Below are positions 5,989 to 25,291 of a stretch of 56,652 nt of DNA, one piece after another. The DNA lies in NCBI GenBank assembly GCA_016213235.1, contig JACRBE010000047.1, forward strand, positions 1-56,652. The letters are read 5' to 3'. The notes beneath the pieces were generated by a model. That model saw nothing but the letters and a program-made list of their open reading frames with translations, made no database searches and was not told the origin of the DNA. A program made the translations under genes and the position numbers. The first letter of the stretch is position 1. Every line of letters begins with the position of its first letter. Source of the stretch: Chlamydiales bacterium (GTDB lineage: Bacteria > Chlamydiota > Chlamydiia > Chlamydiales > JACRBE01).

Positions 5989-7281
5989 ATGAGTTTTTCA
6001 AAAAAAGAACAGAGAAACGTTTTATTTGCAGTATCGATAGGTAATCTCTTAGAGTGGTATGAAATTTACCTCTATGTTTACTGGGCGCCTATTATTGGAA
6101 AACTCTTTTTTCAACAAGACAATTCAGATGGTGGTATTTCTAGCTTAACAAAAACGTTCCTGATTTTTGCAATGGGTTTTTTAGCACGACCTATCGGTGG
6201 CTTATTTTTTGGAAGACTAGGAGATTTAGTTGGTAGAAAAAAATCATTAATTCTATCTCTTATTATCATGGTAATACCAACATTTGTGACAGGGTTACTG
6301 CCAACTTATGAGCAAATCGGCAAGTATGCACCATTTATCTTAGTCGCCATGCGTATTTTACAATCCTTTCCCGCTGGTGGAGAATTGCCAGGGGCCTTTT
6401 GTTATTTATATGAGAGCTCTAAAGCAACAAATAGAAGATTTTTTTGTAGCTGGGGGGCTTTTGGTTATCAGATAGGAATTTTAATTAGCACGCTTGAATG
6501 TTTTCTCTTGGAAAGATTCTTATCTGTAGAAGATCTTATTCAATGGGGATGGAGATTTTCTTTTCTAGTCGGAGGTCTTATTGGGCTATGTGGTCTGTAT
6601 TTACGTTATAAGTTACATGAAACCCCTCTATATCGAGAAATGGAAACACATTTAAAAGTAGTAAGAGAACCAATATTAGGAGTGCTTTATAAATATAAAA
6701 GGCAAATCTTCATGGGTATTTTGTTTTGCGCACTAAACTCTTCTTCCTTTTACCTACTGTCTGTGAATTTCCCTGTCTTATTTGGGAAAGTGCTCGGAAC
6801 CCCCTATTCCAGTAATTTGATTGTTACTTCTCTGCTAATTATTTTAGTCACTGTACCCCTCCCACTTTTCGGTATGTTAGCAGATAGATATGACAATAAA
6901 AAAATACTCATCTCCTCTACGATTGCAATACTTGTTTTATTATATCCACTCTATCTTTCCATTACCTATTCTTCTGTAGTGTTCATGGGAATAATCATGC
7001 TTCTTTTTAGCTTGTTGTTTACCTGCCTCTCTGCTCTTATTCCCTTTATACTAGCTGATCTTTTTCCAACTTATGTCCGTTTTACTTGTGTTGGAGTGAG
7101 CTTTAATATGGTAGATGCAGTGATTGGAGGATTTACACCAGTTATTGCATTATACTTATTGAATATCACAGGAAAAGACGCTTCCTTTTGCTGGTTTTTA
7201 ATGATATGTGCCCTACTTTCCCTTTGTGGTTATCTCATGATGAAGAAAAAACATCCGATAGAAGATAAAACAAATACTTAA
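5989..7281 (+). CDS. MHS-family (ProP-like) MFS transporter
   Basis: GNLLEWYE, GFLARPIGG, GGELPGA, WGWRFSF, LHETP. Confidence 0.9.
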   Translation: MSFSKKEQRNVLFAVSIGNLLEWYEIYLYVYWAPIIGKLFFQQDNSDGGISSLTKTFLIFAMGFLARPIGGLFFGRLGDLVGRKKSLILSLIIMVIPTFVTGLLPTYEQIGKYAPFILVAMRILQSFPAGGELPGAFCYLYESSKATNRRFFCSWGAFGYQIGILISTLECFLLERFLSVEDLIQWGWRFSFLVGGLIGLCGLYLRYKLHETPLYREMETHLKVVREPILGVLYKYKRQIFMGILFCALNSSSFYLLSVNFPVLFGKVLGTPYSSNLIVTSLLIILVTVPLPLFGMLADRYDNKKILISSTIAILVLLYPLYLSITYSSVVFMGIIMLLFSLLFTCLSALIPFILADLFPTYVRFTCVGVSFNMVDAVIGGFTPVIALYLLNITGKDASFCWFLMICALLSLCGYLMMKKKHPIEDKTNT

Positions 7282-7354
7282 AAATTTTAATTGCTCAATT
7301 TTCTTAGCCCCGTTATACATTGATAATTACTTATAGCTATCTTTAGGAGCCATT

Positions 7355-8230
7355 ATGAAATTATCATGGATTACCGGAATAAAGTTGACTGTTGTATGTT
7401 TACTGGGACAACTGGGCATCTCTTCCACTGCTAGTGCAGTGTTTTTTCCTTATCCACCACCAACATTTACGTACCTTTTAACGTCTGAAGATTATGATCA
7501 ATATTCTGTTGTATCGTATATCAATTTGATTGCTTTTGCAGAGATTTTACCACATGTTTATACGAATATTCCCGGTATCTTCACTTCTTCGCCGTTTAAT
7601 CCAAGTCTTCTTACCCCGGTAAATATCCCTTTTACTCAAGGTGAGATACAAAATTTTCAAGCCCAGATCAGCGCTGCTATTGATGCAATGTATCGTGTTG
7701 TTATGACAATTACGGTACCACCCGGAGCAAACAGAAACTTTGTGATTAATGCTCTTGCTGCTATTTCACAAAATATTGCTTTCAATAATTTTAATGGGGT
7801 AAGAACAGCTTTAACTGCATTATTAACTCAGATGAACTATTGGGCTGTAGAATTTAGCAATAACCAAGTGGGAGCTCCTCCTCTTGCTCCACCAAACCTC
7901 CTTGTTCCTCCAATCCGAAGTCAACCAACGCATTTACAAGCATATCTTTGGATATATTGCGTATATAGTATAGCGTATCAAATTATTCCCGGTGCTACAT
8001 TGTCACAGTTAATCAGCTGGTATAGTAGTACACAATTCCAAAAAGGGCTTCGACTTGCTATTGATAACATTATTCCTATGCAAATTTTTCCGGATAGTAC
8101 CGTGCACCTAGCATTCCAGAGTTATGACTTTGTAAATAATGCAATAGCTCGCGGCACTTTTACAGAGCGAACACTCAATCAGGTCATGCCTCCTTTGCGA
8201 CAGGCTTTTTGGCAACTTACGCCTAAATAA
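7355..8230 (+). CDS. Hypothetical secreted protein
   Basis: AGGAG RBS; signal peptide ending ASA; 291 aa, no recognised family. Confidence 0.75.
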   Translation: MKLSWITGIKLTVVCLLGQLGISSTASAVFFPYPPPTFTYLLTSEDYDQYSVVSYINLIAFAEILPHVYTNIPGIFTSSPFNPSLLTPVNIPFTQGEIQNFQAQISAAIDAMYRVVMTITVPPGANRNFVINALAAISQNIAFNNFNGVRTALTALLTQMNYWAVEFSNNQVGAPPLAPPNLLVPPIRSQPTHLQAYLWIYCVYSIAYQIIPGATLSQLISWYSSTQFQKGLRLAIDNIIPMQIFPDSTVHLAFQSYDFVNNAIARGTFTERTLNQVMPPLRQAFWQLTPK

Positions 8231-17102: not shown

Positions 17103-17717
17103 ATGAAAAACACATATTCACCAAAAGAATTTGGTACATTAATAGGAAAAACGACAAACACGCTTCAGCGATGGGACCGCGCAGGGGTTCTTCAAGCGCA
17201 TCGTTCCTTAACAAATCGTCGCTACTATACACATGATCAATATTTGCAAGTCATAGGTCACAAAGCCAAAGAAAAAAAGCGGGTAGTTTACTGTAGAGTC
17301 TCGAGTATAGGACAGAAAAAAGATCTCATTTCACAGCGCAGTGCTATCGAAACATTTTGCTTGAATGCGGGCAAGGTGATCGATGAGAAATTTGAAGATA
17401 TGGGGTCAGGCTTAAACTATGGAAGAAAAAACTTCATAAAATTAATGGAATTGGTTGAGCAAGGTCTTATTTCAGAGATTGTTATCGCCCACAAAGATCG
17501 ATTAGTGCGTTTTGGATTTGAATGGTTTGAAAAATTTTGTTATGATCATGGGACGAAAATTTTAGTAATGAATGTAGAGTCCACATCCCCTGAAGAAGAA
17601 ATGACAAAGGATTTGCTTTCTATCATTCATTGTTTTTCCAGCCGCTTATATGGGCTTAGAAAATACAAAAAGAAAATTATTGAAATGACGAAAGAACATG
17701 AGAACGATCAAACGTAG
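17103..17717 (+). CDS. tnpA: IS607 serine-recombinase transposase
   Basis: N-terminal MerR-like HTH (TLQRWD..RRYY), YCRVSS catalytic Ser, GSGLN, HKDRLVRFGF, FSSRLYGLR. Confidence 0.93.
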   Translation: MKNTYSPKEFGTLIGKTTNTLQRWDRAGVLQAHRSLTNRRYYTHDQYLQVIGHKAKEKKRVVYCRVSSIGQKKDLISQRSAIETFCLNAGKVIDEKFEDMGSGLNYGRKNFIKLMELVEQGLISEIVIAHKDRLVRFGFEWFEKFCYDHGTKILVMNVESTSPEEEMTKDLLSIIHCFSSRLYGLRKYKKKIIEMTKEHENDQT

Positions 17718-19140
17718 TGTCTTACCCCTCAATCAAAATAAGCAAGCTATGGTAGAGTCCCTTGCGATTGCTTATTGCAAGGAAAAAAAATACTGGTTGG
17801 GAGTTTTGCAAAGCTGGGATTACCAGGCTTTACTAGGGCGTTCCAGAGAGATTCGCGATCAATTTGTAAAAGATGGGTATAAATCTGTTAGAGGTTTGCA
17901 AGCAAGGCATTGGAAATTAGCTTTGGAAGATGCCATCTCCACCTGGGATATGTACTGGCAATCCCTATTCGTAGAAGCGCGCAGGAAAATCCATCAGAAT
18001 AAAAACCTTTCAGAGCAGGCAAGTCATTATGCTTACTGGCTACTCAAAGGCTACAAACAGTTTGCAGCGCTTATGAGAGGAGGAAACCCTCTGCCTCCAT
18101 TCGAAATCGATTCAAAAGATAAGATCGCATCATACGTAAGAAGAGTTATTAAAAAGCTCAAGAAAAAGCCCCCTACTGTAAAAACAACAAGAATTGTCAA
18201 GTTTGATGCAGATTGTTATGAAGTGTTTGAAAAGGAGGAGCGTCAGTATCTTAAGATCATGACACTTGTCAAAGGAAACCGACTTGCACTTCCGCTGGTT
18301 GGTAAAACAAAACTATCAGGTAATATCACCCTGGTTATATCGGACACAAAAATAGAAATCCATGCTACACAAGACTTGAAAAAGAAATCACCACAAAAAA
18401 ATGGCACGATAGAGTCTGTTGATTTTGGATACACTGAAGTCATGACAGATACAGATAACAACAGATATGGAAAACAATTTGGAGAAGTCCTGAGTACTAC
18501 ATCAGACAATCTCTCTGATACGATGAAAAAAAGAAACAAACTGCATGCGATAGCGAAAACAACGAAAAATCCGAGCATAAAAAAACATAATTTGGGGAAG
18601 AAAAAGTTCAATAGACAGATGCAGAAAAACAAAGCTTGCCTTGAAAAAGAGATAAATACTGCAATCAATGAACTTATAAAAGAAAAAAAACCGAATATTT
18701 TAGTCACGGAAGATTTACGCCATGTATTTACATACAATAAATCCAGAAAAATGAATCGGAGACTTTCCGCATGGTTACGTGGCACACTCCAGGATAGAGT
18801 AGAATTTAAAGCATTGGCAGAAGGTTTCTGTCATGAGCAGGTTAATCCGGCCTACGGGTCTCAAATTTGTCCTCATTGCGATTTTGTGGACCATAAAAAT
18901 CGCAACGGGGATAAATTTAGGTGTCTTTATTGTGGACACGAGGACGTAGCTGACAGGGTTGCCGCATTGAACTATTTCAGAAGATTTGCTGATCAAGAGA
19001 TCGGACGATATATGCCTTATCGTGAAGTAAAAACCAAACAATTGGAAAAGTTCCATCGCCGATTGGAAATGGGAGAAATCCCCATGACTGTTCCGGGCAG
19101 GACTCTAGATACCGTTACTTGTGTGAATCCACCACGCTAA
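17698..19140 (+). CDS. tnpB: RNA-guided endonuclease TnpB
   Basis: RuvC-I SVDFG, RuvC-II VTEDL, CPHC..CLYC zinc ribbon, RuvC-III ADRVAALN. Confidence 0.9.
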   Translation: MRTIKRSVLPLNQNKQAMVESLAIAYCKEKKYWLGVLQSWDYQALLGRSREIRDQFVKDGYKSVRGLQARHWKLALEDAISTWDMYWQSLFVEARRKIHQNKNLSEQASHYAYWLLKGYKQFAALMRGGNPLPPFEIDSKDKIASYVRRVIKKLKKKPPTVKTTRIVKFDADCYEVFEKEERQYLKIMTLVKGNRLALPLVGKTKLSGNITLVISDTKIEIHATQDLKKKSPQKNGTIESVDFGYTEVMTDTDNNRYGKQFGEVLSTTSDNLSDTMKKRNKLHAIAKTTKNPSIKKHNLGKKKFNRQMQKNKACLEKEINTAINELIKEKKPNILVTEDLRHVFTYNKSRKMNRRLSAWLRGTLQDRVEFKALAEGFCHEQVNPAYGSQICPHCDFVDHKNRNGDKFRCLYCGHEDVADRVAALNYFRRFADQEIGRYMPYREVKTKQLEKFHRRLEMGEIPMTVPGRTLDTVTCVNPPR

Positions 19141-22994: not shown

Positions 22995-23120
22995 AAATAA
23001 CCTAAATTTAAATAAAAATATTTTTATCTATTACGTTTGTTAAATGAATAGATAAACAAAATTAAATTCTAAAAAGTGTTTTAGAAACAAAAATATATGA
23101 ATGTAATAAAAAAAAAAGAA

Positions 23121-23189
23121 TTACCCTAAAAAGGGCGGAGGGGGAGGAGAACAGATAAATTTAGGTACAATAAAAAATGTTTTTTTCAT
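23121..23189 (-). CDS. Putative proline-rich leader peptide of proBAC (MKKTFFIVPKFICSPPPPPFLG)
   Basis: Manual translation: 22 codons including CCT CCC CCT CCG CCC; TAA followed by TTC and a 10-T tract; lies between a promoter-like site and proB. Confidence 0.7.
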   Translation of the reverse strand: MKKTFFIVPKFICSPPPPPFLG

Positions 23190-23238
23190 ATTAACCAAAA
23201 AGACTACACAATTGAGGACCTTTGTCCTTTGAAACAAT

Positions 23239-23266
23239 AGTATATTGCACAATAGTTTTTACGCAA
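23239..23266 (-). promoter_or_regulatory. Sigma66/70-type promoter for leader-proBAC
   Basis: TTGCGT-N16-TATACT on the minus strand about 50 nt upstream of the leader ATG. Confidence 0.5.
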
Positions 23267-23366: not shown

Positions 23367-24533
23367 CTATATCTTAAGAGCCTTTTTAACTTTTTTACCA
23401 ATATCAATCAGCCGCTCTTTGGGTTCATTAGAAAATACAAAACGTACATATTTAGCAGCCGTGTTTCCCCAACCAATCATCGGTGTTGTTGCTATTTTTG
23501 CCTCTTTCAATAGTTTGTCAGAGAGTTCCTGAGAAGATATCCCTATGGTCTCTGCATCAAGTAAGAAAGACCACCCTCCATGTGGAGGGATAATAGGAAA
23601 GCCAGCTAGTTCATGAAGCAGAGTGTTGCGTCTTTGTTCCCACACACCAATGGCTGCTTTCAGCCCATCATCTTGCGCATTAATCCCTGCAGCCACACCT
23701 GCCATACTAATACCTGTTTGACAGACAACATTTGATATGCTGACAAGGCCAATATCATTCATGATACTCTTTGGACCTACAACCCATCCTACACGCCACC
23801 CTATCATGCGTAGTTCTTTCGATGCTGCTCCCACAGTAATGGTACGCTCTTTCATACCTGGCAGTGATGCCGGATGAATCAGAGGACGGTGATCATAAAG
23901 AATCCTCTCCATTGCTGCATCATAGAGTAACCATGCATCTGTTTTGATACTGGTGCGCGCAACAGCTTCCCATTCCATTTGAGTAAGCACATGACCTGTT
24001 GGCATACCGGGGCTGATCAATATCACTTTTGTGCGTGGGGAAACGGCCCGTTCTAGTGCATCTATATCTAAACTCCATCCTGTTGGAGATGGTATAAGCG
24101 GCACAAATACAGGAATACCACCAGCTAAACGTATACGGTTAATAATACCTGCATAGGTAGGATCTGTGACGATTACCTCATCACCCACTTCAAGCATGGC
24201 AAGAAGACAATTCAAAATACCAGACATGCCACCGGCAGTGATAATGCATTCACTGCGCCAGTCGTATTCTATGCCACTAACACGTGAGACTCGTTTTGCG
24301 GCTGCTTGTCTTAACGTGTCTTGCCCAAGGAAAGGGAGATAACTATTATTTTCATCTACACCAACAGCCTTGCGGGTGGCTTCAATAGCAATTGCCGGTG
24401 GTGGTATATCAGTGTCCAGATTTTCAAGACGTAATATTTCAGGATCATGAGCTGCATCTGCTGCATTTCCCATACGGTCTACACCAATTCCAGGCACGTC
24501 GGCAAGTCTTGATACTTTTTTTAAATTAGGCAT
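23367..24533 (-). CDS. Class I/II PLP-dependent aminotransferase
   Basis: DPTY, PGMPTG, YDAAMER, ASKELRMIGWRVGW. Confidence 0.9.
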   Translation of the reverse strand: MPNLKKVSRLADVPGIGVDRMGNAADAAHDPEILRLENLDTDIPPPAIAIEATRKAVGVDENNSYLPFLGQDTLRQAAAKRVSRVSGIEYDWRSECIITAGGMSGILNCLLAMLEVGDEVIVTDPTYAGIINRIRLAGGIPVFVPLIPSPTGWSLDIDALERAVSPRTKVILISPGMPTGHVLTQMEWEAVARTSIKTDAWLLYDAAMERILYDHRPLIHPASLPGMKERTITVGAASKELRMIGWRVGWVVGPKSIMNDIGLVSISNVVCQTGISMAGVAAGINAQDDGLKAAIGVWEQRRNTLLHELAGFPIIPPHGGWSFLLDAETIGISSQELSDKLLKEAKIATTPMIGWGNTAAKYVRFVFSNEPKERLIDIGKKVKKALKI

Positions 24534-24658: not shown

Positions 24659-25291
24659 ATGAAAAATTCAGAATTCACTGCCTTATGGAAACAGTATGAT
24701 CCTTTAATAAAGGCAATTGTAGAGCTGTTTCATCCTTTTGTAGAAGCTGCGGTTCACGACCTTAAGCAAGGGAAGATAGTAGCGATCTATCATAATATTT
24801 CTCAGAGGAAAGTAGGGGATCCTTCCCCACTGAAAGAGTTAAAAGTAAATATTAAGGACTTCCCGGAATATTTTACTCCCTATTACAAACAAAATTGGGA
24901 TGGAAGGCCTCTTAAGTGTACGTCTATCACCATGCGAAGTAAAAATGGTAATCCTATTGGATTGATTTGTTTAAATATGGACGCGAGTTTTTTTCAAGAC
25001 GGTTATCACTTATTAGAAGCATTTTTGAAAACTAAACGTGAAGCTGCAAATCCAATAGAAATATTTGGTAGCCAATGCGAAGAACAGGCAATGAGTGTCA
25101 TTCAACGATATTTAGATGAAAAACATTTATCGTTAAATCATTTAAATCGTGATCAGAAAAAACAGCTCGTTCAACATTTATATAAAAAAGGGATATTCAA
25201 CTTTAAAAATACAGCACCATTCATTGCAAAAAAATTGAATACGTCTAGGGCAAGTGTGTATAATTATATTAAAAAAAGTGGAATTGACTAA
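24659..25291 (+). CDS. YheO-like PAS + HTH transcriptional regulator
   Basis: EAAVHDL, SQRKVGDP, GLICLN, KGIF, SRASVYNY. Confidence 0.9.
   Translation: MKNSEFTALWKQYDPLIKAIVELFHPFVEAAVHDLKQGKIVAIYHNISQRKVGDPSPLKELKVNIKDFPEYFTPYYKQNWDGRPLKCTSITMRSKNGNPIGLICLNMDASFFQDGYHLLEAFLKTKREAANPIEIFGSQCEEQAMSVIQRYLDEKHLSLNHLNRDQKKQLVQHLYKKGIFNFKNTAPFIAKKLNTSRASVYNYIKKSGID

Follow-up and report, generated by a model that had tools for sequence, protein, structure and literature searches.

The proBAC operon of a Chlamydiales bacterium is preceded by a short upstream open reading frame (uORF) with five consecutive proline codons near its 3' end, and this element is real and conserved. It lies in a stretch of 56,652 nt from contig JACRBE010000047.1, hereafter referred to as the window. 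Whatever the mechanism, the uORF is likely to be a translated leader that senses its Pro codons. As for how it acts, we favour, with a probability of about 0.5, control by steric masking, in which the ribosome on the leader would govern Rho- or pause-coupled termination by a logic similar to that of TnaC and CruR. Conservation, coding-type variation, linkage to proB, the position of the predicted promoter, both predicted hairpins and the presence of rho were obtained by sequence comparison.

A proline-codon leader upstream of proBAC

The features of the region are as follows, in order of transcription.

23266-23239, minus: predicted sigma-66/70-type promoter, TTGCGT-N16-TATACT; the -10 box ends 49 nt before the uORF ATG
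23228-23215, minus: small hairpin close to the predicted 5' end of the transcript, AGGAC-AAAG-GTCCT; a similar stretch occurs in some relatives
23196-23194, minus: weak Shine-Dalgarno (SD) remnant, GGT; relatives show GGTG, GGTA or GGAG at the same position
23189-23121, minus: leader ORF of 22 aa, translation MKKTFFIVPKFICSPPPPPFLG followed by the stop; 45 distinct homologues, including the window's own
23147-23133, minus: five Pro codons, CCT CCC CCT CCG CCC; putative sensing codons and a C-rich, G-poor patch
23136-23123, minus: hairpin 1, GCCCT-TTTT-AGGGT; 5 pairs, with the CCC of the last Pro pairing with the GGG at the stop
23120-22995, minus: untranslated U-rich spacer of 126 nt, from the uORF stop to proB
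23117-23108, minus: U10 tract, 5 nt (AATTC) beyond hairpin 1
23086-23067, minus: hairpin 2, TTCTAAAA-CACT-TTTTAGAA, AU-rich, about 30 nt after the stop; missed in the first-pass annotation
22994-22212, minus: proB, glutamate 5-kinase, short form of 260 aa in which the C-terminal ~110 aa (PUA domain) are missing
22215-20968, minus: proA, glutamate-5-semialdehyde dehydrogenase, overlapping the proB stop
20956-20168, minus: proC, pyrroline-5-carboxylate reductase (NCBIfam)

Translation of 23189-23121 (minus) confirmed the penta-proline uORF that the first-pass annotation had placed upstream of proB. The promoter-like TTGCGT-N16-TATACT that it had described is likewise present at 23266-23239, where it was found by a looser scan and is absent from the list of a stricter one. 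Among the relatives described below, 25 of 43 leaders have a TTG-N16-18-TAnnnT site ahead of the uORF, compared with 19% of shuffles, and 10 of 43 copies have one inside the uORF or the spacer.

The window's proB, proA and proC each score above their NCBIfam cut-off. The PLP aminotransferase encoded upstream of the leader (23367-24533) falls below all 25 listed family cut-offs, and the terminator scan of the window listed no terminator-like site between this gene and the pro promoter. Divergent from the aminotransferase is a 210-aa ORF (24659-25291) that has no NCBIfam match and looks regulator-like by eye. On the other side of the operon, just past a carbonic anhydrase gene downstream of proC, a resolvase-like ORF of 204 aa overlaps one of 480 aa whose C-terminus carries a zinc-finger-like motif (17103-19140, plus); this pair presumably represents something resembling an IS607-type element.

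In a crude gene set of the source genome, the window's leader was the only one of 876 short upstream ORFs with at least four consecutive Pro codons. This uniqueness, together with the 45 distinct copies before proB, places the Pro run beyond chance. An exact-sequence look-up of five leader peptides in a protein collection returned none, which means only that they have not been called as genes.

Conservation and signs of translation

Relatives of ProB were drawn from 41 genomes, from metagenome contigs (13 loci), from genome contigs (22 loci) and from 400 sampled genomes of the phylum. The survey thus covers Chlamydiota, and only two distant loci (L031 and L053) come from outside the phylum. 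Among the 400 sampled genomes, 69 have proB at E <= 1e-30 (G043 was left unscored). The nearest proB relatives belong to chlamydial families such as Rhabdochlamydiaceae and Parachlamydiaceae. Of the 69 sampled genes, 36 share 58.8% identity or more with the window's ProB; 26 of these carry the leader (the copy in G370 is degenerate) and 10 lack it, and none of the 33 more distant genes is preceded by one. After removal of duplicates, 45 distinct Pro-codon uORFs, counting the window's, lie directly before proB; these copies are kin and not independent, so that p-values overstate. The gene after proB is proA in 43 of the 45, the remaining two loci ending early or having a truncated proB, and the ORFs upstream of the leader fall into 35 clusters among 41, which indicates that the leader travels with proB.

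An RNA-level pattern scan of 401 genomes gave hits in 19 genomes; in 11 the hit lies directly before proB and in 8 at another place. None of the latter is a credible leader, and the sole ATG-led Pro run among them lies antisense within a phosphatase-like gene. A second pattern scan of the 401 genomes returned 2 proB leaders and 4 unrelated matches; the two scans found no Pro leader before any gene other than proB. In a quick ProB tree (92 rows, without root or clade tests), a group of 33 rows with short ProB (SH-aLRT 90) carries the leader in 31. In one of the two leaderless rows proB lies directly behind another gene, and in the other an opposite-strand gene replaces the uORF. The first-pass annotation had made its reading depend on a Pro-run uORF being conserved before homologous proB genes with synonymous variation, and the reading survived this comparison: the leader is conserved in related chlamydiae, in 45 copies, and third-position changes dominate in the Pro run.

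Several loci deviate from this layout. In L038/L098 upstream of proB, and in L107, L109 and L117, the leader is decayed or shortened, with the hairpin region kept and the frame broken or ended by an earlier TAG. L070 (1622-1924) has an intact leader, and its proB breaks off after about 80 codons, through either a broken gene or a misassembly. L044 shows the same layout with a single Pro. proB itself is present in G000 and G002, and with this query was not found in G001, a 97% complete genome of the same genus, or in two other genomes of the same family; this patchy occurrence suggests transfer or loss of proBAC together with its leader. A ProRS-like gene (G000:C56, frame 6103-7629) follows another gene closely and scores far below the bacterial-type cut-off TIGR00409, and may be of the other ProRS type; no leader was found before this gene in the source genome.

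The pattern of substitutions and the start signals indicate that the uORF is very probably translated. In the 19 leaders of 24 aa, differences at codon positions 1, 2 and 3 number 18, 66 and 279 in the Pro-run codons 18-20, and 1204, 862 and 1112 in the N-terminal codons, which are near neutral. All four Pro codons are used across the leaders, and leader length varies between 14 and 37 codons with the Pro codons staying in frame. Start signals were classified as SD-only (an SD word and no adjacent -10 box) or leaderless-type (no SD, and a -10 box that lies 5-8 nt ahead of the ATG). By this classification 28 of the 45 uORFs are SD-only, 10 leaderless-type only and 1 has both, while 6, including the window's leader with its GGT only, have neither. 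As initiation is either SD-led (28) or leaderless-type (10), selection appears to act on translation. The candidate leaderless transcripts (L027, L041, L051, L070, L103, L118, L122 and L124, and also L003 and L028) are scattered over the ProB tree. Overall, the codon-position counts and the start signals support the earlier proposal of a conserved Pro-codon leader that is tied to proBA(C), has an upstream promoter and varies synonymously.

The same data bear on whether the reading frame could be incidental, with the C-rich RNA acting untranslated, as an element or as a constitutive dampener. We consider this very improbable. Such an element would account for the near-neutral N-terminal part, where single-base differences are 277 synonymous and 680 non-synonymous, for the observation that non-Pro substitutions within the run remain pyrimidine-rich, and for the three Parachlamydiaceae-like copies (L107, L109 and L117) in which an earlier TAG occurs and the hairpin is kept. 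It would not account for third-position variation in the Pro run, for an ATG that stays in frame across changes in length, or for the mutual exclusivity of SD and leaderless starts. The other two frames, moreover, are open in only 9/45 and 23/45 copies, a comparison in which frame 0 was itself the selection criterion. A check for nascent-peptide arrest gave the same near-neutral N-terminus, with F6, S9 and R-Q-F recurring among close kin.

Hairpins and proposed control by the ribosome on the leader

Hairpin 1 includes the last Pro codon and runs into the stop, as the first-pass annotation had noted, and the hairpin and the 10-U tract are both present; the U10 tract, however, begins 5 nt after the stem. 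Its proposed role as a classical intrinsic terminator was not supported. In the 42 scored copies (3 were unscored) stems of 3, 4, 5 and 6-7 bp occur 9, 22, 9 and 2 times, respectively, so that 40/42 fall within 3-5 bp; median stability is -6.3 kcal/mol, and the first 8 nt past the stem contain 2-7 U. A strong intrinsic terminator, with a GC-rich stem and an immediate U tract, is absent downstream of the uORF in the leaders scored. The hairpin is nevertheless kept by selection as RNA, since GGG is retained in the nucleotide sequence where Gly has been lost and the peptide ends in Arg-Val (L051, L123). We regard hairpin 1 as likely to be a pause element or a weak terminator.

Hairpin 2 shows two-sided changes in 6 of its 8 pairs (14 cells; 0/500 shuffles) among 28 copies picked for a visible hairpin. 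Folding z-scores over all 45 copies are modest, with a median of -1.2 and 20 copies under -1.5, and hairpin 2 has no clean U tract. RNAalifold yielded no consensus pairs for either of two alignments, and hairpins were therefore counted by means of specified structures that were derived from the same sequences. Folding the leaders with and without ribosome masking revealed no competing antiterminator. Hairpin 2 keeps a median of 8.9 pairs in naked RNA, 9.5 when a ribosome masks the Pro run and 9.9 when it masks the stop, and the GGG arm of hairpin 1 has a median of 0.2 pair elsewhere. With hairpin 2 unaffected by masking and no other partner found for the GGG arm, only sequence under the ribosome can switch. 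No state involves translation of the spacer, and no alternative fold was found in it, so that the switch would be whatever the ribosome covers, namely the Pro codons and hairpin 1.

A T-box riboswitch was rejected, as the leader has no T-box match in Rfam: the scan gave 8 weak matches, all far below the gathering score and none of them a T-box. In the parts of PMC9245794 considered, the Bacillus subtilis proBA/proI T-box controls the same operon in response to the same inferred signal, uncharged tRNA-Pro, but binds the tRNA directly, without a translated leader.

C makes up 51% of the Pro part and G 8%, and in 45/45 leaders 16-30 C stand against 5-12 G per 78 nt. Past the stop, the first 30 nt consist of 56% T and 6% G, and the spacer, 46% U, measures 47-306 nt (median 126, 42 leaders). 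The window's Pro-codon patch is thus a candidate Rho loading site, although composition cannot prove such a site, since Pro codons force C-richness and the patch is also short. The source genome encodes rho (above the curated cut-off), nusG and two efp-family genes.

We infer translation, pausing, Rho action, the direction of control and the signal, as well as every other functional step of the following model. Translation of the uORF peptide would gauge the supply of charged tRNA-Pro and thereby control transcription into proBAC, through masking and not through a terminator/antiterminator pair. Polymerase would pause at hairpin 1 and the U tract, allowing the ribosome to catch up. With proline plentiful, the ribosome would pass the Pro codons, stop at UAA and depart; Rho could then load on the bare C-rich, G-poor Pro patch and terminate transcription in the U-rich spacer, where polymerase may pause at hairpin 2. 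When proline runs low, the ribosome would wait on the Pro codons and mask both the patch and hairpin 1, and polymerase would reach proB. If polymerase pauses at hairpin 1 and Rho then loads on the patch that the ribosome has left, control would have the sign required of a biosynthetic operon.

A ribosome covers about 15 nt of mRNA ahead of its P site, and about 14 nt lie inside the polymerase. With these footprints there is no room for the ribosome to complete translation at the stop as long as polymerase occupies the U tract, so that hairpin 1 would be blocked by a fast ribosome just as by a stalled one. For this reason, and because of its weak stem, hairpin 1 is unlikely to be the sole device. 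The footprints thus bear directly on the possibility, which we judge doubtful, that hairpin 1 and the U tract form a weak, factor-assisted intrinsic terminator, which is read through when a ribosome stalls on Pro2-Pro5 and hides the 5' arm: the two states would be hard to distinguish. The short stems, a U run displaced from hairpin 1 by as much as 9 nt (in one copy 16 nt) and the lack of two-sided changes in hairpin 1 among the copies scored argue in the same direction. This reading does, in turn, make sense of the codon four before the stop, which is CCC in all of the first 27 leaders (26 of them end in TAA), of the GGG kept despite Gly loss, of the U run that follows the stem in most copies and of nusG in the genome. 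A comparable cysS leader, with a first hairpin that holds the sensing codons followed by U's, has been proposed in Rhodobacterales, as given in the parts of PMC8632094 examined.

For control by masking of a Rho site, the sections consulted of PMC12360218 provide TnaC, SpeFL and CruR as precedents. The chlamydial leader would resemble the Rho-attenuation uORFs tnaC, speFL and Bordetella cruR in that a stalled ribosome masks a C-rich site within or beside the uORF, ahead of a long untranslated spacer, and rho is present in the genome; the known uORFs differ in sensing a ligand through the nascent peptide and in controlling catabolic or transport genes, whereas the chlamydial signal would be charged tRNA-Pro and the role of Rho is putative. 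Pro-coding stretches are C-rich and resemble Rho sites, according to part of PMC5021804, and Chlamydia has translation-linked, Rho-mediated polarity, according to part of PMC7755916. In E. coli reporters from the same portion of PMC5021804, stalling on PPPPPP upstream of a terminator increased termination; this counts against the Rho model, as the sign is opposite when the signal lies beyond the ribosome. Also against it are the single-Pro copy in L044, the absence of a leader from 10/36 close proB genes and the weak SD in the window. Furthermore, the invariant CCC/GGG pairing and the U tract reflect selection on hairpin 1 beyond what a pure Rho model needs.

Control could instead be post-transcriptional, with occupancy of the uORF governing proB initiation through SD sequestration, or leader cleavage or decay. 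In the window, uORF positions 23166-23156 (codons 8-12) can pair over 11 nt, without a mismatch, with the proB SD region at 23010-23000 (minus; -11.1 kcal/mol), and hairpin 2 could guard a processed 5' end. A precedent exists in the mycobacterial polycysteine sORFs, as described in the accessible part of bioRxiv 10.1101/834739, which have the same kind of homopolymer codon run at the sORF end, are in some cases leaderless and act by SD sequestration. In the chlamydial leaders, by contrast, SD pairing is not conserved: over 42 leaders, pairing with the own, cross and shuffled partner averaged -6.3, -5.8 and -6.0 kcal/mol (p 0.42 and 0.81). Masking shifts SD accessibility only from 0.42 to 0.45-0.48, and spacer length ranges between 47 and 306 nt. 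SD sequestration was therefore rejected as a general model, being strong in the window only. As it is not conserved in relatives, the 11-nt complement is suggested to be due to chance or to be lineage-specific, and we consider post-transcriptional control as a whole unlikely.

Pro-run length, ProB form and known leader peptides

The length of the Pro run differs with the form of ProB. Runs of 3-6 Pro precede short ProB in 30/32 leaders and full-length ProB (~370 aa) in 0/12, all 12 of the latter having 1-2 Pro. This difference is relevant to the signal, since the leader could respond to slowed Pro decoding (EF-P activity, tRNA-Pro modification, Mg2+ or osmotic state) rather than to proline itself. 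The long runs before short ProB, a bias towards CCC/CCU (Pro codons end in C or U in 112/148 leader codons versus 170/274 in proB, hairpin codon excluded) and the two efp-family genes would fit such a sensor, for which Salmonella mgtL is a precedent (parts of PMC12856214, PMC12360218 and PMC5021804). Like the chlamydial leader, mgtL has Pro codons in a short leader, and its stalling favours read-through in a Rho-linked manner. It controls the Mg2+ transporter gene mgtA via alternative stem-loops, however, whereas the chlamydial leader precedes genes for proline synthesis and has one Pro run and no alternative fold that we could find. We think slowed decoding improbable as the signal, since the regulated genes make proline and the motif was found before no other gene in the 401-genome scans. 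Several of the 12 leaders before full-length ProB read PxPxP, which fits the sensing of hungry codons better. The first-pass annotation had proposed stalling for lack of either Pro-tRNA or EF-P; given that 12/12 leaders before full-length ProB have only 1-2 Pro, sensing of EF-P is less likely than sensing of Pro-tRNA.

Both forms of the enzyme, short (~260 aa) and full-length, occur across Chlamydiota, the short one in at least two groups, of which family f30 has no leader at all. L121 has a short ProB and five Pro codons and is placed among full-length ProB in the quick tree, and may be a recombinant or reflect a second event. The additional C-terminal part of full-length ProB is taken, on the basis of its length and of the literature, to be the PUA domain, which promotes proline feedback inhibition of the E. 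coli enzyme (part of bioRxiv 10.1101/2024.09.19.614007). The part of PMC6345581 seen, for its part, describes E. coli proline synthesis without enzyme-level regulation. The link between loss of PUA and the Pro run comes mostly from one clade and is suggestive only. Tentatively, and at rather less than even odds, the leader may be a proline attenuator that a lineage of environmental chlamydiae evolved for itself, in which the sensing codons double as Rho loading site and as an arm of the pause hairpin, with no antiterminator, and in which the Pro run was lengthened, apparently twice, where ProB had lost PUA; control at the level of the gene may then replace part of the control at the level of the enzyme.

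Classical leader-peptide attenuation operates on Trp, His, Leu, Thr, Phe and Ile/Val operons. In the portions of PMC7755916 and bioRxiv 10.1101/834739 considered, the classical attenuators (trpL, hisL, leuL, thrL and pheL) share with the chlamydial element a short uORF between the promoter and the first biosynthetic gene, a run of cognate codons near the uORF 3' end and a near-neutral N-terminus. The chlamydial element differs in that the amino acid is proline, in having no strong terminator or antiterminator, and in that the sole GC hairpin, of 3-5 bp, lies inside the uORF end. It thus works like a leader-peptide attenuator yet lacks two defining features, the strong terminator and the antiterminator. 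Pro-based devices named in part of PMC12856214 are SecM, MgtL and CadC. uORF motifs for Cys and Phe are described in PMC8632094, with none for Pro in the parts examined, and the word proline is missing from the main text of PMC2965389 and PMC4833913. A full-text literature search, which covered few subscription papers and no supplements, found no proline leader peptide for a pro operon. This type of control is known for other amino acids, and a description for proline synthesis was not found in that literature.

With a conserved Pro leader in front of proBAC, proline would join the amino acids known to have leader peptides. As polyproline is also a substrate of EF-P, the element makes it possible to test the reading of Pro-tRNA supply through a run that stalls for other reasons, and the 45 copies, which differ naturally in the number of Pro (1-6), in start type (SD-led or leaderless) and in the ProB that follows (with or without PUA), are a ready comparative series. 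In Chlamydiota, where the putative trpL of C. trachomatis is called unvalidated and atypical (part of PMC7755916), the Pro leader would provide the phylum with a well-supported amino-acid leader.
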